This document shows positions 14,348-58,089 of a DNA stretch of 60,677 nucleotides, piece by piece. The DNA is from an uncultured Clostridia bacterium (lineage in GTDB: Bacteria > Bacillota > Clostridia > TANB77 > CAG-508), in the NCBI GenBank assembly GCA_947626555.1, contig CANQSP010000002.1, positions 1 to 60,677 on the forward strand, read 5' to 3'. Below the pieces are notes generated by a model. It saw nothing but the letters and a program-made list of their open reading frames with translations. It searched no databases and was not told the DNA's origin. A program made the position numbers and the translations under genes. Each line of letters begins with the position of its first letter. Within the stretch, counting starts at the first letter, position 1.

Positions 14348-16417
14348 TTATATTGCACATACAAATTTATTATACGAATTTTTCACTATCTTCCGGCCCA
14401 TTCCGTCCGCCTCCGCCACCGGCCGCCGGCCTCCACCAGAAAATCCTCCGCCTCCACCAGAACCACTTGAAGAACTATGTTTTGCTATCTCTGATAAAGA
14501 TGTTGAATATGCTCTATCTGTACTACTATTTAATACACTTAGAGGATGATAATTTGATACTCCATAAATTATATTACTCGTAGCAAAATTTAATACTTGA
14601 TATTTTTGTAAGTTTTCATCATTCCAGTATTCTTCTACAAAAACTTCTGGATATTTTGCCTTCATTTGCTCTATAACTTTATCTGCTATCCCAAATGCAG
14701 TAGCATATACTAAATATTTTTCCCATAATGCAAGCTCTGGGACCTCTCTTTCTTTAATTAAAGAAAACTCCTCCATAAACTTTGCTAAACCTTTCCATTT
14801 TTCTTGCTCTTCTGTACCTTTTTGTGTTAATACAGCTATTTTACTTTGAATTTTTGATCTTATTTTAAATTTTACTAATAACGTAGCAATAAGAGGTAAA
14901 AATATTATAGCTATTGTTATAAAACCACCTACAAAGCCAACTCCAAATGCATTTATATATGCTCTATTAAATATTGGAAGTAGTCCAATTATAAGTGCTA
15001 TTATAAGAATTTTTACTGCTCCAACAAGAAAATAGTATTTATCATTTGCACTGGATGATTTTTTATATAACTTTTCGTCTGCTTTGTCAACTAACTCTTG
15101 CCTATACATACTCTCTCTTGATTCATTTACCATTTTATTTATAAGTTGACTATATTTTGTATAATTGTTTTTAGCAAATGTATTTATCTTTGAAATTTCA
15201 AATTCTCCGCCCTGCATTTTATATGTCCCATTTAAAATTTCATATACAGCTTCTTCATCTCTATTTAAGCCATTACTTCCTTTAAGAATATTTACATACA
15301 CATTTTTATCTACTGTTCTAAAGCTTATATAACCTTTTAATGCAAGATTTAAAAATGTAGCTGAAACTATATCAGACTGATGTTGCATTGTATCTTGTTT
15401 ATCTTTTTTAAAGAAATATAAATACGAAGCTTCAGGAGGAGTTGCATTTTCTTCTCTTGGAATTCCTCTATAATATTTAATATCTGAATGTATTATACCA
15501 TCATCTTTTTTCTTATTAATTTTATATGCTTTTATAACTTGTATTAAATTAATTATTATTGCTATTACATAGATTATTAACAATATAATATAGAAATAAT
15601 TTGCAACATCATTTGACTCATTTGCCCATTTATTTTCTTCCTGCATAATTGTATTTAAATATGAATAATTTCTTATTTTAGAGCTATTTACATCAAACAT
15701 ATCCTCTGTAGTAACTGCTCTTACCTCTAACATTCTTCCAGCTTCTAAATTATCTACGGAAAATTCAATACTATTTTTTGAAGCTATTTTTATATTTCCA
15801 TTTAAAGGTCCATGACCCCATGCTTTCAAATTTTCTATTTTGCTTACATTATCTGGCATCGTAATTTTCCCAGTAACTTTTTTTACAGGTATAGCATTTT
15901 CTTCGCTTAATAGTTTCCAATAAAATTCTTCGCAATCGTTGTAATCTTTAACTACATTTAATACAGTATATGATATTTGATATTGCTTTTTACCAATTCG
16001 ATTTTCCATACCTGTTCCCCATGCAATTTCAAAATTTGATGAATTTACATATAATGCATAATAGCAATCTGTTGTAACATGGTACATTTTTTCATCAATT
16101 TGTTGTAATATCTTACCAGTTTGAAGATCTTTTACAGTTACATCAGTAATATTATCAAAACTAGAGCCTATTTTATTAAAATCTCTAAAAAGTGTATTTG
16201 TATAACTAATATATACATCCCATGTTTCAGTTATCCTAGCACTTCCATCTTCCATTAAAACTACATCATAGTTTAATTCATCCATAATTTGACTTTTGTC
16301 AAATAATGTACCTGTAAATAATATTATTATAGTTATTATTATTAACATTATAATAAACATTTTTAATAGGCTTTTTAAGTGCTTTTTTATAAACTCTTTC
16401 ATATTGATAGTACCCAT
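14348..16417 (-). CDS. DUF2207-like membrane protein (689 aa)
   Basis: N-terminal TM helix, large extracytoplasmic domain, three central or C-terminal TM helices and a Gly-rich tail (SSSSGSGGGGGFSGGG) characteristic of DUF2207. AAGGAGA SD lies 8 nt before ATG 16417. Confidence 0.6.
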   Translation of the reverse strand: MGTINMKEFIKKHLKSLLKMFIIMLIIITIIILFTGTLFDKSQIMDELNYDVVLMEDGSARITETWDVYISYTNTLFRDFNKIGSSFDNITDVTVKDLQTGKILQQIDEKMYHVTTDCYYALYVNSSNFEIAWGTGMENRIGKKQYQISYTVLNVVKDYNDCEEFYWKLLSEENAIPVKKVTGKITMPDNVSKIENLKAWGHGPLNGNIKIASKNSIEFSVDNLEAGRMLEVRAVTTEDMFDVNSSKIRNYSYLNTIMQEENKWANESNDVANYFYIILLIIYVIAIIINLIQVIKAYKINKKKDDGIIHSDIKYYRGIPREENATPPEASYLYFFKKDKQDTMQHQSDIVSATFLNLALKGYISFRTVDKNVYVNILKGSNGLNRDEEAVYEILNGTYKMQGGEFEISKINTFAKNNYTKYSQLINKMVNESRESMYRQELVDKADEKLYKKSSSANDKYYFLVGAVKILIIALIIGLLPIFNRAYINAFGVGFVGGFITIAIIFLPLIATLLVKFKIRSKIQSKIAVLTQKGTEEQEKWKGLAKFMEEFSLIKEREVPELALWEKYLVYATAFGIADKVIEQMKAKYPEVFVEEYWNDENLQKYQVLNFATSNIIYGVSNYHPLSVLNSSTDRAYSTSLSEIAKHSSSSGSGGGGGFSGGGRRPVAEADGMGRKIVKNSYNKFVCAI

Positions 16418-19793: not shown

Positions 19794-20036
19794 TTATTTT
19801 CTTGTACCAATTATTATATTAATATCAAAATCATTTTTATACTTCTTTATAATATCACTTGAAAATCCTGCTATTTCATTTGATAATACTATAGTATTAT
19901 AATTTTGATTTACTAGTTCACTCATTTTACTGTCTATTTCTTCCGGATTTTCTAATTTTTCTACTCTCATACCTAGCTTCTCTGCCATTTTAAAATTTTT
20001 ATCATCATTTTCACACTTAATCCATGATATTTTCAA
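19794..20036 (-). CDS. small protein (80 aa), unknown function (weak V-ATPase subunit F-like pattern)
   Basis: TTG start at 20036 lies 6-7 nt after AAGGAGGG (20043-20050), which overlaps the left terminus of element copy B. Confidence 0.4.
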   Translation of the reverse strand: MKISWIKCENDDKNFKMAEKLGMRVEKLENPEEIDSKMSELVNQNYNTIVLSNEIAGFSSDIIKKYKNDFDINIIIGTRK

Positions 20037-20392: not shown

Positions 20393-20535
20393 ATTTACAA
20401 ATTTTATGCAAAATATTTACATAATAAAAAAATTATGTTAAAATTGAAAACAGAGTTTTATTTTTAGCTATAAAAAGAAAGTTAGTGATAAGTGTTATTG
20501 TAACTATCGACCAATTTCATTTTAAGGAGGACACT

Positions 20536-22221
20536 ATGCAATTCGTTACTAATCATCTTTGGGTAATTATAGTTATTGCGGCAATTATTGGAATCATAAT
20601 TTTTCTGGCTGCAATCTACAAAGTTGCTGATATTGACAAGGCACTGATAATCACTGGTGGCAAGGAACCTGTTATCAAGGTATCTGGGGGCTCGTTTGTC
20701 ATCCCTATTTTCCGCAAAGCAAGCTACTTTGATTTATGTATGCTTACTGTACGAGCAGATAAGGATGAAATTAAGACCTGTACCGCTGTGCCTATTGTTG
20801 CTGACTGGACTGCTCAAATTCGCCCTTGTGTTAACGATGAAACTAAACTTCGTACAGCAATTATTTCCTTTAAGGAACGAGGTAATGATGGTATTATTGC
20901 GGATGTTAAGCTCACTCTTATGGGTGCTGTGCGTGATGTTGTTGCCTCTATGACTCCTGAAGCAATTTTGAATAACAAAGAAGCTTTTAAACAGGAAATT
21001 CAGAAAAGCGTTGCTGATGAAATGGATAATATGGGCCTTGAGCTTGTATCTCTAAACATTCAGGATGTTTCTGATAGTAACGGCTACTATGACAACATTG
21101 CTGCTTTGGATTCAGCTGAAAAGCGTAAAGCTGCTGAAATTAAGCATGCAGAAGTTGACCAAGTAACTCGCGAAAAGAAGGCAGAAGCAACTAGAGCTGC
21201 TGAAATTGCCGAGGCAACAGCTAAGAAGGAAACCGAGATTTCCAAGATGGAGGCAGAGCTTGCCGAGAAGGAAAAGCGCAAAGATACCGACATGAAACTC
21301 GCAGAATTCAAAATTGCAACAGAAACCGCCAACGCAGATGCTGACGTTGCTGGAGAACTGCAGAAAACTCTTCGCGAACGTGAAGTCGAGGAACGTAAGG
21401 GTGCTGTTGCTGTTATGAAGGCAGAGCAGGAAAACCTTGCAGCTCAAAAAGAGCGTGAAGTTATGATTACACGTGCAGAAGCTGATAAGGCGACTAAGCT
21501 TGTTAATGCAGAAGCAGATGCAAACGTTCAGGCTATTCAGGCAGATGCCCAAATAAAAGTTGCCGAGCGTAAGGCTGATGCAGCGCGTAAAGAAGCCCAA
21601 GGTAATGCTGACGTTGAAACTATTGCAGCTGAGGCTCGTGTAAACGTTGCCGATCGCGACGCTGAAGCAGTTAAGAAGTCTGCTTTTGCACAAGCTGAAA
21701 AGACTCGTGCCGAAGGTCTTGCCGAAGCTGAGGTTTCCAAGCAAAAGGCTCTTGCTGAAGCTGAAGGTAAAAAAGCTGCTCTCTTAGCTGAAGCAGAAGG
21801 TTTAAAAGCTCAGCAACTTGCTGAAGCTGAAGGTATCAAAGCCAAGAAGCTTGCAGAAGCTGAAGGTGAAAAATCCCTTGCAGAAGCACGTGCAGCAAAT
21901 GAAAAAGTCAATTTCGAGATTGAGAAACTCAAGATTCAAACTGATGCTCAAGTAAGAATAGCCACTTCTACTGCTGAAATTATGGCAAATATTGGGCAAA
22001 ATGCCGAATTCGTCAATATCGGCGGTGGAAATGTTCCTTGTCCTACAGGTACAAGTGGAACAGGTAATGTTTTACTTGACACCATAATGCAGATGCCTGC
22101 ATTGATGAAGACTCTTAACATCCAGAATGAGGCACTCAATGGTCGGCCTGTTACAGAAGAAATCAAAAACATTTCTGATGCAGCCCTTTCTGGCTTGGGA
22201 GCACTAAAAAAAGAGTCATAA
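20536..22221 (+). CDS. flotillin-family protein (SPFH/Band 7 domain plus long Ala/Glu-rich coiled coil)
   Basis: ATG 20536 lies 5 nt after AAGGAGG. N-terminal TM helix, SPFH region (IITGGKEPV...FVIPIFRKASYFDL...) and EA-rich repeats (AEAEGKKAALLAEAEGLKAQQLAEAEGIKAKKLAEAEGEK). G+C is far above its neighbours. Confidence 0.85.
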   Translation: MQFVTNHLWVIIVIAAIIGIIIFLAAIYKVADIDKALIITGGKEPVIKVSGGSFVIPIFRKASYFDLCMLTVRADKDEIKTCTAVPIVADWTAQIRPCVNDETKLRTAIISFKERGNDGIIADVKLTLMGAVRDVVASMTPEAILNNKEAFKQEIQKSVADEMDNMGLELVSLNIQDVSDSNGYYDNIAALDSAEKRKAAEIKHAEVDQVTREKKAEATRAAEIAEATAKKETEISKMEAELAEKEKRKDTDMKLAEFKIATETANADADVAGELQKTLREREVEERKGAVAVMKAEQENLAAQKEREVMITRAEADKATKLVNAEADANVQAIQADAQIKVAERKADAARKEAQGNADVETIAAEARVNVADRDAEAVKKSAFAQAEKTRAEGLAEAEVSKQKALAEAEGKKAALLAEAEGLKAQQLAEAEGIKAKKLAEAEGEKSLAEARAANEKVNFEIEKLKIQTDAQVRIATSTAEIMANIGQNAEFVNIGGGNVPCPTGTSGTGNVLLDTIMQMPALMKTLNIQNEALNGRPVTEEIKNISDAALSGLGALKKES

Positions 22222-23314: not shown

Positions 23315-24125
23315 TTACATCTTTCTAAATTTTTCATAGCGTTTTTCTATTAAAGTATTGCTATCTAGCTTTCTAAGCTTTTCTAACTCTTGAAGAATAT
23401 ATTTTTTTATGTCTTTAGTAACTTTTTCAAAATCGTTTTGTGCACCACCATCTGGTTCTTTAATTATTTTATCAATAATATTTAGTTCTTTTAAATCTTC
23501 TGCTGTAATTTTCATATTTTCTGCCGCTTCACTTGCTTTGTTTGAATCTTTATATAATATACTTGCAAACCCTTCAGGAGACAAAATTGAATAAATTGCA
23601 TTTTCTAGCATTACTATTCTATCTCCAACACAAATAGCTAAAGCACCCCCACTTGAACCTTCTCCTATTACTATTGATATTATTGGAACTTTTAATGTTG
23701 CCATTTCCATCATAGATTTTGCTATTGCTTCTCCGTTGCCCTCTTTCTTCAGCACCAATACCAGGATATGCACCTGGTGTATCTATAAACGTTATTATTG
23801 GTCTACCAAATTTTTCAGCTTGTTTCATTAGTCTCATAGCTTTTCTATATCCTTCTGGATTTGGCATTCCAAAATTTCTTTGCATATTTTCTTTAGTAGT
23901 TTTTCCTTTTTGCTCTCCTATAACTGTAACCGCTAACTTGTTAACTGCAGAAGTACCAATTGTAGCAATTCCTCCTACTATAGATTTATCATCTCCATAT
24001 AATCTATCACCATGTAATTCTATAAATTCATCAAATATGCTTTCTATATAATCTAATGCCTTTGGTCTATCCTTTTGCCTTGCAATCAAAACTCTGTCCC
24101 ATGCAGATATAATTTTCTCTTTCAT
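23315..24125 (-). pseudogene. accA: acetyl-CoA carboxylase carboxyltransferase alpha subunit, interrupted by a +1 frameshift near 23735
   Basis: ORF 23619-24155 carries [18 protein letters not shown], then leaves frame. ORF 23315-23773 resumes with [34 protein letters not shown]. One extra base (plus-strand G at 23735) separates the frames. Confidence 0.8.
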
Positions 24126-24181
24126 TATTTGCTCCTTTTCGTTATAAAAATTCAATATAATTAATTTATAATATCATTCAC

Positions 24182-25036: not shown

Positions 25037-26410
25037 TTAATTTCCTCCATTATTTGCAAGAACTATTTGCATTCTAAAAATCCGTTTCAAAAAGCCTGTA
25101 TCATAATCATTATTTTTAAAATCTTTATTATCTAATATTTGCAAAATAAAATCTATATTTGTATCTATCCCTTCAATTACAAACTCTGACAATGCACTTT
25201 TCATCTTAGCAATAGATTCATTTCTATCTTTTCCATGAACTATTACTTTTGCAAGCATCGAATCATAATTTTGCGGAACCGTGTATCCTGTATAAATGGC
25301 CGTATCAATCCTAATTCCATTTCCTCCTGGGAAATTTATTCCTGTTATTTTTCCCGGACATGGCATAAAATTTTTAGAAGGATTTTCTGCATTTACCCTT
25401 ACTTCCATACTATGCCCATTTACTTTTATATTTTCCTGACTGTATTCTAGTTGCATACCACTTGCTATTTTTATTTGTTCTTTTACAATATCTATTCCTG
25501 TTACAAATTCAGTTACAGGATGTTCCACTTGAATCCTTGTATTCATTTCCATAAAATAGAATTCTTTATTCTTATCTACCAAAAATTCTATTGTTCCTGC
25601 ATTTGTGTATCCTATTTCTTTTACAGCCTTAACTGCAACTTCTCCCATCTTCCTTCTTAGCATTTCATTTATAACAGCACTTGGAGATTCTTCTAATACC
25701 TTTTGATTTCTCCTTTGAATACTACAATCTCTTTCTCCTAAGTGAACTACGTTCCCAAACTCATCTGCTAATATTTGTATCTCAACATGTCGAGGATTTT
25801 GTATGAATTTTTCTATATATATACTACTATCTCCAAAAGAATTTAAAGCTTCCTGCTTTACAATATCATATTGCTTATCCAATTCATCCTCATTATATAC
25901 TATTCTTATACCTCTTCCTCCACCACCTGCAGATGCTTTTAACATAACAGGATATCCTATTTTATATGCTATTTCCTTACTTTCATCTTTTGACGTTACT
26001 ACCCCATCTGAGCCAGGAATTACAGGAACTCCAATGCTTTTCATTGTTTCTTTAGCCTTTGATTTATTTCCCAATAATTCTATAAGTTTATAGGATGGTC
26101 CTATAAATTTTATACCTATTTCATCGCAAATTTTTGCGAAATTACTATTTTCTGATAAAAATCCAAATCCAGGATGAATACTATCACATCCTGTTAAACA
26201 TGCTGCCTCAATTATTGCCTTTACATTTAAATAACTTTTAGAGGATTGTGCTGGACCTATACAAATTGCTTCATCTGCAAGTTTTGTATGAAGTGCCTCT
26301 TTATCAGCTTCTGAATAAACTGCAACTGTTTTTATTCCCATTTCTCTACAAGCTCTTATTATTCTTACTGCTATTTCTCCTCTATTTGCTATTAATATTT
26401 TATTTAACAT
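25037..26410 (-). CDS. accC: biotin carboxylase
   Basis: KILIANRGEIAVRIIRA N-terminus, ATP-grasp GGGGRGIR, and EMNTRIQVEHPVTE. Start set at ATG 26410. An in-frame ATG at 26422 abuts the SD. Confidence 0.95.
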   Translation of the reverse strand: MLNKILIANRGEIAVRIIRACREMGIKTVAVYSEADKEALHTKLADEAICIGPAQSSKSYLNVKAIIEAACLTGCDSIHPGFGFLSENSNFAKICDEIGIKFIGPSYKLIELLGNKSKAKETMKSIGVPVIPGSDGVVTSKDESKEIAYKIGYPVMLKASAGGGGRGIRIVYNEDELDKQYDIVKQEALNSFGDSSIYIEKFIQNPRHVEIQILADEFGNVVHLGERDCSIQRRNQKVLEESPSAVINEMLRRKMGEVAVKAVKEIGYTNAGTIEFLVDKNKEFYFMEMNTRIQVEHPVTEFVTGIDIVKEQIKIASGMQLEYSQENIKVNGHSMEVRVNAENPSKNFMPCPGKITGINFPGGNGIRIDTAIYTGYTVPQNYDSMLAKVIVHGKDRNESIAKMKSALSEFVIEGIDTNIDFILQILDNKDFKNNDYDTGFLKRIFRMQIVLANNGGN

Positions 26411-26593
26411 TATAACTTTCATTCCCTTCGATTTTTATTTGCAAGTATTTGCAATTTTTATAATTAAAATAAACAGCCATTTTTTCAAATTTTTTTAGTA
26501 CTCACTATCTTATAAAATTAGTTTAAAAAACTATCTTCTTAAAATTTACTTAAAACAATTTAATTCTTTTTATGTTCATCTTTCTAAAATATT

Positions 26594-26622
26594 TTGACAT
26601 TTACATAAATTTGCTGTATAAT
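26594..26622 (+). promoter_or_regulatory. consensus sigma-A promoter driving the two-ORF insert
   Basis: TTGACA (26594-26599), exactly 17 nt, then TATAAT (26617-26622), 34 nt upstream of ATG 26657. Confidence 0.75.
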
Positions 26623-26656
26623 ATTTTTAAAATTTTATTGAAAGGTAGGTAAATAT

Positions 26657-27010
26657 ATGAGACTTCGTAATTACCTTGGTAGACTCAAACGGATTCTTTT
26701 CGTTTGGTTCGAATTTTCGCTATATACCAATAAAGTATTACGCGAATTTCATTTTTTGATATGTCATAAAATTTTTTGGGCATATCTCAGGCAAGGGCTT
26801 TTCAAAAAAGAATTTGTCGTCTCTTTTCCAATGATGTTATCTAAATATCCTCATCCATCTTATGTTTATTTTGCACCAATTCGAACGAAACAATATTTCA
26901 ATAAGGATAAGATGACTGAAAAGTTACTAGATGATTGTGGTTTTACTCTGTTTGAAAACAATGTTTCAAATGACAAAACAAACTATTATTTTAGGGAGGC
27001 AAAATCATGA
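26657..27010 (+). CDS. hypothetical protein (117 aa), first gene of a foreign two-gene module
   Basis: ATG lies 7 nt after AAAGGTAGG. Higher G+C than the host. The stop overlaps the next start (ATGA). No family recognised. Confidence 0.5.
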   Translation: MRLRNYLGRLKRILFVWFEFSLYTNKVLREFHFLICHKIFWAYLRQGLFKKEFVVSFPMMLSKYPHPSYVYFAPIRTKQYFNKDKMTEKLLDDCGFTLFENNVSNDKTNYYFREAKS

Positions 27011-27312
27011 TAAAGTCCAATGCATCAAAGTGTTCCAGCAAATATGAACGCTTTTTTACACTATTAAGTCAAGTTGGAACGTCATCTAAAGGTGAAGCAG
27101 CTATTTATAAAAAGTTGATTGCAGAATTACTAAACGTTTACATTCAAAACAATGACAGCTTCCCGTCAATTTTTTATATTAACGGAAACTATCCAGAAGA
27201 AGTCGTCGTTTCCACAATAAATACTTTATGTGGTCACGAAGTTCAGTGGGTAACAAAATCTGCTCCGCCAAGGCCTAACAAGAACTATACTTGCGTAAAG
27301 ATGGCTGGTTAG
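27007..27312 (+). CDS. hypothetical protein (101 aa), second gene of a foreign two-gene module
   Basis: AGGGAGG SD lies 7 nt upstream of ATG 27007, inside the preceding ORF. No family recognised. Confidence 0.55.
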   Translation: MIKSNASKCSSKYERFFTLLSQVGTSSKGEAAIYKKLIAELLNVYIQNNDSFPSIFYINGNYPEEVVVSTINTLCGHEVQWVTKSAPPRPNKNYTCVKMAG

Positions 27313-27353
27313 CTTGATAACAAAGTCATAATTGTATTTCTTATTTTTTAAGT

Positions 27354-27396
27354 AGCAGACTTTCGTATTTTTAATAAACTCGAAGGTCTGCTTTTC
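27354..27396 (+). terminator. rho-independent terminator of the two-ORF insert
   Basis: AGCAGACTTTCG-loop-CGAAGGTCTGCT followed by TTTTC. It abuts the fabZ stop codon (27397). Confidence 0.75.
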
Positions 27397-27819
27397 TTAT
27401 ACTATCGCAAAAGTAAGTTTCCCTTTAGCTGCAACTTTCCCATCAACTGTTGCTATAGCCTCTCCCACACCCACAGGTCCTTTCCTTTTTATTATTTTTA
27501 CTTCTAATTTCAATGTATCACCTGGCACTACTTGCTTTTTAAATCTTAAATTATCTATACCTCCAAAAAGTGCATTCTTTCCTTTATTTTCTTCCATAGA
27601 CAATATTGCAACTGCACCTGTTTGTGCCAAAGCTTCTACAATTAATACCCCAGGCATTATTGGTTGCCCAGGAAAATGCCCTGCAAAATAAGGTTCATTA
27701 ATACATACATTTTTATATGCTATACAGCTTTCTCCTGGAACATATTCTTCTACTCTATCTATCATTAAAAATGGTGCTCTCTGAGGTATTATTTTCATTA
27801 TCTCATTTATATCTAACAT
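27397..27819 (-). CDS. fabZ: 3-hydroxyacyl-ACP dehydratase
   Basis: [10 protein letters not shown]-like [34 protein letters not shown] hot-dog motif. 140 aa. Confidence 0.95.
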
Positions 27820-57290: not shown

Positions 57291-57629
57291 TTATGATTTT
57301 TTCTGACCTTCTATTTCTTTTCTAATTTCCTTACATAATTTATTAAATCCATCTCCATCTAAGAACCCCATTGATTGACTCGACAAATAACCATGCACTA
57401 AAGCATATTTATTCCACCTTATCTCACTTGGATTAATTTCATTATTTTGCATATATTCTTTTAAAGCTTCCATACTTTTATTGTAATAACTTGGTATACT
57501 TTTTTGCTTTACATATACGTTTTCTAATTCAAATGCTATTCTTTTACTAGTTTTATATGCCTGTTTAGATTTTAATCCATATTTTTTTATATTTTCAGTT
57601 AACTCTTTTTTTAAACTATCTATTACCAT
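57291..57629 (-). CDS. hypothetical protein (112 aa), translationally coupled to the XRE gene
   Basis: The ATG overlaps the XRE stop (ATGGTAA). The N-terminal helical segment is faintly Spo0E-like but has no SQELD motif. Confidence 0.5.
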   Translation of the reverse strand: MVIDSLKKELTENIKKYGLKSKQAYKTSKRIAFELENVYVKQKSIPSYYNKSMEALKEYMQNNEINPSEIRWNKYALVHGYLSSQSMGFLDGDGFNKLCKEIRKEIEGQKKS

Positions 57630-57823
57630 TTTACTTTATACAACTCCGTTATTTCAACATCCAAGGCTTTTGCTAATCTTATCATCACAATCAAGCCTGG
57701 AGATTTAATATTATTTTCTATATCATTTATATGGGTCGTCGAAATCCCACTTTTTTCAGATAGTTTATATAAACTCCAATTTTTCTTTTGTCTAACTTCT
57801 CTCAATAAAATTTCTACATGCAT
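57623..57823 (-). CDS. XRE-family helix-turn-helix transcriptional regulator (66 aa)
   Basis: LREVRQKKNWSLYKLSEKSGISTTHINDIENN HTH_3 pattern. ATG 57823 lies 5 nt after GGTGAGAG. Confidence 0.85.
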   Translation of the reverse strand: MHVEILLREVRQKKNWSLYKLSEKSGISTTHINDIENNIKSPGLIVMIRLAKALDVEITELYKVKW

Positions 57824-58089
57824 TTTTTCTCTCACCAAAGCTTAATTTCTAATTTTACCTTATTTAAACACAGAACTTGTCCGCTATGGCGGATTTATAA
57901 AAATATTACTACATATGAAACTTTATTTTATTACTCAAATTACAGTCTATGCCTTGATACTACTTATATTCCTGTCTTTTCCCTTTCTTGTTAATTTTTA
58001 CTTATAATTAAAAATATTCTCGTCTTTTAAAGAATACATTTTATTTTAATTAATATATTTTGCTTTCTTATTAATATACTTTACTATAC

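Follow-up and report, generated by a model that had tools for sequence, protein, structure and literature searches.

A conserved two-gene cassette of undescribed small proteins lies antisense between accC and fabZ in the fatty-acid synthesis genes of uncultured gut Clostridia

The region described here belongs to a contig of 60,677 nucleotides (nt) from an uncultured Clostridia bacterium (CANQSP010000002.1), the whole of which was analysed and is called the window below. It contains genes for type II fatty-acid synthesis and acetyl-CoA carboxylase in the order fabH-fabD-fabG-fabF-accB-fabZ, followed by two small open reading frames (ORFs) on the opposite strand, ORF1 and ORF2, and then by accC-accD-accA-fabI; besides the two genes that flank the pair, NCBIfam also confirms fabF, accB, accD, accA and fabI. 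ORF1 and ORF2 form a compact, self-contained and translationally coupled two-gene unit, antisense between accC and fabZ (Table 1). An earlier reading of the DNA, made from its letters without database searches (the sequence-only reading), had described such an antisense coupled pair, and its anatomy was recovered in full: both ORFs with their ATGA stop/start overlap (27007-27010), a perfect TTGACA-17-TATAAT promoter, an AGGGAGG Shine-Dalgarno (SD) sequence inside the first ORF, 7 nt before the ATG of the second, and a hairpin terminator whose TTTTCTT tail runs into the fabZ stop codon at 27397-27399. The promoter is the sole perfect match to this consensus in the 60.7-kb window, where the chance expectation is 0.06.

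Table 1. Features of the cassette and of its two neighbours (window coordinates; aa, amino acids)
Feature	Position	Strand	Remarks
accC (biotin carboxylase), left neighbour, divergent from the cassette	25037..26422	-	NCBIfam NF004085, 1.8e-228
Variable spacer, accC to cassette promoter	26423..26593		Unalignable between lineages
Sigma-A type promoter, TTGACA-17-TATAAT	26594..26622	+	Scores 12/12
ORF1 Shine-Dalgarno, GAAAGGTAGG	26640..26649	+	Ahead of ORF1
ORF1, 117 aa	26657..27010	+	Open reading frame
ORF1 Arg12 CGG, conserved rare codon	26690..26692	+	CGG then ATT in 7 lineages despite saturated synonymous sites
ORF2 Shine-Dalgarno, AGGGAGG	26993..26999	+	Within the end of ORF1; encoded by conserved F-R-E codons
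ORF2, 101 aa	27007..27312	+	Start overlaps the ORF1 stop
Intrinsic terminator, hairpin 27355-27391 then TTTTCTT	27355..27398	+	Fold -20.4 kcal/mol, z-score (z) -5.9
fabZ, right neighbour, convergent with the cassette	27397..27819	-	NCBIfam NF000582, 8e-55

The pair is present between accC and fabZ, at the same site and in the same orientation, in every close relative found (L001-L005, L008-L018, L023 and L024). These make up about eight lineages of uncultured gut Clostridia, from the rabbit gut wherever the source is known. The eight lineages share, at this site, the promoter, both SD sequences, the order of the genes and a terminator. The block from the -35 element to the start of ORF1 is almost invariant, including the first nine bases of the promoter spacer (TTTACATAA) and, in the ORF1 SD, GAAAGG with the GGTA that follows it, both of which are identical throughout; the DNA just upstream of the block is unalignable. 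ORF1 and ORF2 overlap by 4 nt or are separated by 1, 3, 5 or 6 nt, depending on the lineage, and the junction always stays within this range of -4 to +6 nt with the second SD inside ORF1, where it falls within the F-R-E codons in L018 and in the distant lineage L026 as it does in the window. A hairpin stands directly after the ORF2 stop in every lineage, followed in most of them by a T-run on the plus strand.

ORF1 and ORF2 are genuine protein-coding genes under purifying selection. Both frames are open across seven to eight lineages. In comparisons between lineages the ratio of non-synonymous to synonymous substitution rates (dN/dS) is 0.07-0.35 for ORF1, with saturation at synonymous sites, while most values for ORF2 are 0.1-0.3, and the proportion of non-synonymous differences is far below that of synonymous ones in every pair of lineages for both genes. 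The same codon is kept in all lineages at only 7 of the 41 invariant degenerate residues of ORF1 and at none of the 16 in ORF2; since codons turn over at residues that do not change, selection acts on the proteins. An overlapping function of the ORFs at the nucleotide level was also considered, and was rejected in view of this free codon variation, of the lack of an Rfam match in the cassette region and of the lack of minus-strand ORFs longer than 36 aa opposite the cassette. The non-synonymous evolution of the pair is 3-5 times faster than that of accC and fabZ. In one lineage, L018 together with L006 and L007, which come from independent samples, an in-frame deletion of 49 codons has removed the invariant FLICHKIFW core of ORF1, and the gene also has a TAG at codon 83. 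Despite this decay the promoter, both SD sequences and ORF2 are intact in that lineage, where ORF2 gives a dN/dS of 0.11-0.19 against the other lineages.

Both genes encode small proteins that are basic and soluble, and their family is undescribed and has an extremely narrow distribution. The ORF1 protein has an isoelectric point (pI) of 9.7, is 21% aromatic and carries the invariant motif FLICHKIFWAY-RQGL, which includes a Cys-His pair; the ORF2 protein has a pI of 9.0, and neither contains a membrane segment. Their AlphaFold2 models (mean confidence, pLDDT, of 73 for ORF1 and 80.5 for ORF2) have the element orders H-H-E-H-H-E-E and H-H-E-H-E-E, respectively (H, helix; E, strand), and share an alpha-alpha-beta-alpha-beta-beta order, in which the last two strands form a beta-hairpin. 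The sequence-only reading had recognised no family for either protein, and sequence libraries, structure profiles and fold searches likewise gave no significant match. Pfam, NCBIfam, PADLOC and PHROGs hold nothing for the two proteins or for their distant members, library entries being reached at noise level only (TIGR04157, E 0.07; phrog_23011, 0.2; DUF6930, 0.12; FYRC, 0.19), and the search of PADLOC-DB returned 0 families at E values up to 1. Sequence profile searches of the PDB were empty for both proteins, and Foldseek searches of the PDB and BFVD gave no E value of 0.001 or below for either model: the best match of ORF2 is uL23 (E 0.03, template modelling score 0.37), which is too weak to use, and that of ORF1 has an E value of 0.2 or worse. 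No name for the proteins was found in any source.

Among 5.8 billion proteins, ORF1 is represented by five sequence clusters, that of the window included, and ORF2 by three, which a profile search raised to seven. An exhaustive profile search with ORF1 through 1.8 billion representatives gave four matches, among which one (P0015) is a repeat protein and probably spurious and another covers only the last 40 residues. Where a source is named, the homologues come from metagenome-assembled genomes assigned to uncultured Clostridia and Clostridiaceae; two of these genomes are "Lapin" bins obtained from rabbits, and the sequencing runs that contain the window sequence are rabbit gut metagenomes. No second copy of ORF1 or ORF2 was found in the window. 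Two ORFs considered as paralogues, at 57291-57629 of the window and at 9819-10154 of L002, are unrelated to ORF2; the latter (+ strand, 111 aa) is a second opposite-strand ORF inside the fab operon, where it separates accB from fabF, with its own -10 element (TGcTATAAT) and SD, and it has no detectable relation to ORF1 either. On another contig (L025, positions 1-619, coverage 1.06) an ORF with weak similarity to Glyco_trans_1_4 (E 0.0077, short of the Pfam threshold) is fused in frame to the tail of ORF1, of which the last 40 residues are retained and followed by the start of ORF2. A glycosyltransferase origin of ORF1 was considered from this fusion and rejected, as a real rearrangement and a chimeric assembly could not be told apart.

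The cassette is also found at another locus. In L026, where ORF1 is about 41% identical, it lies between a gene for a LytTR-domain protein and obg, and consists of the promoter, an SD, the ORF1-like gene with an SD in its F-R-E codons, a distant ORF2 homologue (a 92-aa ORF) and a terminator-like hairpin. It carries an identical stretch of 15 nt (TTGACATTTACATAA) and then TATAAT, hence the same promoter in a different genomic context. This common layout indicates that promoter, genes and terminator travel together, and have occupied at least two loci over deep time. At 1240-1300 of L026 the conserved tail of the ORF1-like gene (GFELLESVSGNYFFREEN) stands in another frame and the called protein, P0013, ends early, which is due either to a frameshift or to a contig error. 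A distant relative of ORF2, P0012, is encoded in L019 after asnB and next to the gene for a SCIFF peptide, and the 85-aa ORF that precedes it is only borderline ORF2-like.

The sequence-only reading had taken the unit for a foreign insert with a G+C content visibly above that of the host. The total G+C is instead host-like, at 0.293 for the insert (z 0.07) against a mean of 0.289 +/- 0.042 for the genes of the window (n = 43); it is 0.311 for ORF1 (z 0.5) and 0.363 for ORF2 (z 1.7). The hand counts behind that claim (22/60 in the insert and 10/60 at 19801-19860) are correct, but 19801-19860 lies between long ORFs, and the comparison probably set coding DNA against an intergenic stretch. The frequent C- and G-ending codons that were also pointed out are real: third-position G+C (GC3) is 0.27 in ORF1 (z 2.3) and 0.33 in ORF2 (z 3.6) as compared with 0.161 +/- 0.048, and codon usage is atypical in both (z -2.9 and -3.6, respectively). 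A two-fold excess of GC3 over neighbouring genes occurs in every relative, including one in which the pair is at a different locus, and because all lineages share it despite saturated synonymous sites, it appears to be a lasting property of the pair and does not date a recent transfer. The simplest explanation of the excess, although not a firm one, is weak codon adaptation in lowly expressed genes.

Marks of mobility are likewise lacking. The repeats that flank the cassette are AT-rich chance repeats, with no meaningful terminal repeats among them, and no integrase or transposase was found near it, either in the window or in the contigs of the relatives examined; searches of plasmids, phages and IMG/VR viral contigs gave no match to the pair, and both JGI metagenome scans were empty. 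The accC-fabZ junctions of the relatives hold the same ORFs in the same place, largely the picture that the sequence-only reading had set against its own proposal. Where groupings can be resolved they agree with those of accC, namely (window,(L001,L018)) and, for ORF1, L002 with L017. The shared site, the purifying selection and the absence of mobile-element marks all speak against recent acquisition, and the cassette appears to have been inherited with the operon. A weaker sense of "foreign", the ancient insertion of a portable cassette, is plausible, because L026 has the cassette and the identical promoter elsewhere and because the codon usage is not host-like.

The insert splits the operon, as had also been proposed. 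The accC protein has a conserved start (MLNKILIAN in the window, MLxKILIAN in relatives), whose ATG at 26410 is 183 nt from the -35 element of the cassette; among the relatives the corresponding distances are 14 nt (L002), 22 nt (L017), 38 nt (L004) and, in other lineages, 64, 113 and 140 nt. In L002, L017 and L004 there is room only for the ribosome-binding site of accC, so that the accC mRNA must begin inside or beyond the cassette. At the other end, the hairpin in the window is followed on the minus strand by UACUUAAAAAAUAAG, without a U-run. As the U-run is found on the cassette strand only, the hairpin is not expected to stop transcription coming from the fab genes; the terminator is one-directional in both the window and L018. 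A candidate minus-strand promoter for accC (TTTACC-17-TATAAA), noticed by eye in the conserved block of some relatives, is absent from the window and was not flagged by the scan, and it was dropped. The acc genes of the relatives show two further peculiarities. A fabK-like gene (NMO/IMPDH-type enoyl reductase) stands between accC and accD in L002 (5484-6554) and L017 (5397-6467), where the window has none, and in L008 (1400-2754; contig coverage about 4), a near-identical strain, accC was called as two ORFs of 335 and 116 aa, probably through an assembly error, accC being intact in L009 and in the window.

These features suggest how the cassette might work. ORF1 and ORF2 would be made in a fixed ratio, through translational coupling, and would act together as a complex, as is suggested by the tight junction with its SD inside ORF1, by the shared order of structural elements and by the basic, membrane-free character of both proteins. 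Since both are strongly basic and the promoter spacer is invariant, binding of this complex to nucleic acid is probable, and it may control the cassette promoter. The fabHDGF-accB-fabZ transcript would continue antisense through the cassette to reach accC-accD-accA-fabI, a read-through predicted because several lineages have no room for an accC promoter and because no fab-strand terminator follows fabZ in the window or L018. Cassette promoter and read-through would then oppose each other, by collision of polymerases and by pairing of sense and antisense RNA, so that the acetyl-CoA carboxylase half of the operon would be expressed less when the cassette is expressed strongly, and vice versa. 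The reading as a whole, an old and vertically kept unit that encodes a coupled, probably nucleic-acid-binding complex and whose promoter opposes fab-to-acc read-through, is put forward tentatively and falls somewhat short of being probable; much firmer is the part which holds that these are real genes, at the same site in all relatives, not recent and not a recognisable toxin-antitoxin (TA) system.

Some parallels are known. In Bacillus subtilis, YqhY (Asp23 family) is a small protein encoded after accB-accC, co-directionally with the acc genes, and belongs to a known and widespread Pfam family. It resembles the present pair as a small protein of unclear role kept beside acetyl-CoA carboxylase genes, whereas ORF1 and ORF2 are antisense, have no family and are confined to one clade. 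Another likeness is offered by noncontiguous operons, in which a nested gene on the opposite strand and the operon transcript repress each other (PMC11034616), as in menE-menC-MW1733-ytkD-MW1731 of Staphylococcus aureus (PMC11034616; PMC7154746). Here, too, genes of opposite orientation are nested between co-directional genes of one pathway, the operon strand shows no terminator where it passes the nested genes, and mutual repression would be expected. In contrast to that example, two genes are nested here, as a cassette that brings a perfect consensus promoter and a one-directional terminator of its own; the arrangement is known from sequence alone, and the cassette is portable, since a distant lineage has it at a different locus. 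The authors of the concept state that noncontiguous operons cannot be predicted from sequence alone and need transcript data (PMC11034616). The excludon of Listeria is similar in that oppositely oriented neighbours are inversely linked in expression by overlapping transcription, which in the present case is predicted. It is, however, defined by a long antisense transcript that extends over the divergent neighbour (PMC7154746), while the cassette transcript is predicted to end at the cassette terminator, the crossing being left to the operon transcript, which has to pass through the cassette.

Several observations weigh against the opposing-promoter model. The 183 nt upstream of accC in the window contain a weak promoter-like site on the minus strand (26488-26460), and accC could have its own promoter in this spacer. 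The suggestion that nucleic acid is bound comes from charge, the fold searches having given nothing significant. ORF1 and ORF2 were considered as paralogues, and hhalign and hmmsearch detect no relationship between them despite the matching order of their structural elements. Pairwise distances of ORF1 and ORF2 do not correlate significantly with those of fabZ (rho -0.21 and 0.22), and the case for vertical descent is therefore made from the shared position and from the agreement with accC; fabZ is too conserved, and its synonymous sites are too saturated, for such a correlation to be informative. Finally, the relatives in L026 and L019 are away from any fab gene, so that the proteins are not intrinsically tied to lipid synthesis.

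The unrelated contexts of these relatives, between a LytTR gene and obg and beside asnB and a SCIFF peptide gene, agree with the main rival to the favoured explanation, according to which the cassette is an old, fixed insertion with a function unrelated to fatty-acid synthesis, carried as a passenger at a position without regulatory consequence, and accC would be transcribed from a promoter that lies within the cassette or beside it. A passenger would also fit the faster non-synonymous evolution of the pair relative to accC and fabZ, the poorly adapted codon usage, which suggests modest expression, and the freedom of the spacer between accC and the promoter to vary from 14 to 183 nt. The site has, on the other hand, been retained across lineages whose synonymous sites are saturated, and the 14-38 nt between accC and the -35 element in at least three lineages force the transcription of accC to overlap the promoter or the genes of the cassette, so that some interplay is hard to avoid. 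On balance this explanation is judged rather unlikely.

The sequence-only reading had guessed at a TA or abortive-infection module, and in several respects the pair resembles a type II TA system: two small genes with a 4-nt stop/start overlap are driven by one strong, conserved promoter, whose invariant spacer is possibly an operator, ORF1 is very basic, there is a second locus in L026, and one partner has decayed in one lineage. This decay, with ORF1 lost in L018, L006 and L007 and ORF2 intact, is a way in which a toxin can disappear; as the pseudogene in L018 is the upstream gene and the downstream one is intact, the usual antitoxin-first order is ruled out, and what would survive is a TA or abortive-infection pair in reverse order, in which ORF1 is the toxin and ORF2 an antitoxin that represses the conserved promoter. 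Even so, no toxin or antitoxin domain is found in PADLOC, Pfam, NCBIfam or PHROGs, and no RelE, ParE, MazF, HicA or similar fold is among the PDB matches. ORF2 is basic as well, and no DNA-binding domain of the antitoxin kind can be recognised in it; the pair occurs in single copy, its synteny is stable and its surroundings are not mobile, and a handful of homologues among billions of proteins is unlike the patchy but wide spread of TA systems. The guess is thus not borne out, and its reverse-order form, which has no positive support, is improbable. Elsewhere in the window (57291-57838, - strand), an ORF for a 71-aa protein with an XRE-type helix-turn-helix shares 7 nt with the beginning of a 112-aa ORF, and this pair looks more TA-like or phage-like than ORF1-ORF2.

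A further feature of the operon concerns accA and the codon CGG. The accA gene (23315-24155, - strand) is split over two frames by one extra C, placed after the Gln codon of the conserved motif GAEERGQ(G/S)EAIA (CAA-C-GGA at 23738-23733, - strand) and just downstream of an SD-like AGAGG. L001, L002 and L018 have this extra base in common with the window, although the surrounding codons differ synonymously, while accA is in frame in L017; the 139 codons downstream of the shift are open in all lineages and under purifying selection, with a dN/dS of 0.11-0.20. The pattern suggests either conserved +1 frameshifting by the ribosome at a hungry CGG codon (23733-23735, at the shift site) or a split AccA; a literature search found no report of a +1 frameshift in accA. 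CGG is the rarest Arg codon of the window (7 of 15,989 codons, 0.44 per 1000) and is absent from the 5,757 codons of the other fab genes in three relatives, whereas ORF1 has at least one in every lineage (12 in about 936 codons). In accC, codon 447 (25082-25084) is part of an AAA-CGG-ATT that is kept in three lineages, and the sites in the accC tail, at codon 12 of ORF1 and in accA all read A-CGG-A. The 9-mer AAACGGATT occurs in the window only at the accC and ORF1 sites, two occurrences that are not significant by themselves. Three of the seven CGG codons of the window belong to the last ~30 codons of the gene at 14348-16417 (- strand), a G+C-rich, Gly/Arg-rich tail (GGCCGGCGGCCGGTGGCGGAGGCGGACGG...) that is out of character for a genome of 28% G+C.

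From these sites a rare-codon switch can be imagined, in which the supply of CGG decoding would set full-length AccA, through the +1 slip at CAR-CGG-A, and ORF1/ORF2, through normal decoding, in reciprocal fashion, with promoter interference between the cassette and fab-to-acc read-through reinforcing the control. The conservation of so rare a codon at all three sites, in ORF1, accC and accA, speaks for it. The lineages do not pair the two elements as such a switch would have it, since L017 keeps the CGG of ORF1 with accA in frame, L002 has the accA shift with Leu at codon 12 of ORF1, L018 has the shift and no ORF1, and the 9-mer pair of the window adds no significant support; the switch is therefore regarded as very improbable. 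Hardly any credence is left for the notion that the ORFs are chance frames and that the region functions without being translated, either through an antisense RNA or as a spacer, as the lack of a family match for either protein might suggest: it is contradicted by the substitution pattern, with dN/dS of 0.07-0.35 and proteins conserved through codon turnover in frames that are open in eight lineages behind two conserved SD sequences, and neither an Rfam match nor a minus-strand ORF above 36 aa speaks for it.

Elsewhere in the window, a flotillin-like gene at 20485-22221 (+ strand; FloT, 4e-41, below the curated cut-off) is the G+C outlier, with a G+C of 0.43, a GC3 of 0.31 and a long Ala/Glu/Lys-rich region.

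ORF1 and ORF2 represent new families, with a handful of members among billions of proteins, and offer a clean case of small, lineage-restricted proteins maintained by selection. They also advise caution, in that an oddly placed, compact, strongly promoted and overlapping gene pair is not for that reason foreign DNA or a TA system. The candidate conserved +1 frameshift of accA at a rare CGG may prove to have wider interest than the cassette. Should the favoured reading be true, type II fatty-acid synthesis and acetyl-CoA carboxylase, an essential pathway, would be tuned in these bacteria by an opposing promoter in the middle of the operon, and the idea of the noncontiguous operon, so far mapped mainly in Staphylococcus, would come to include uncultured gut Clostridia as well as a two-gene unit that is portable.

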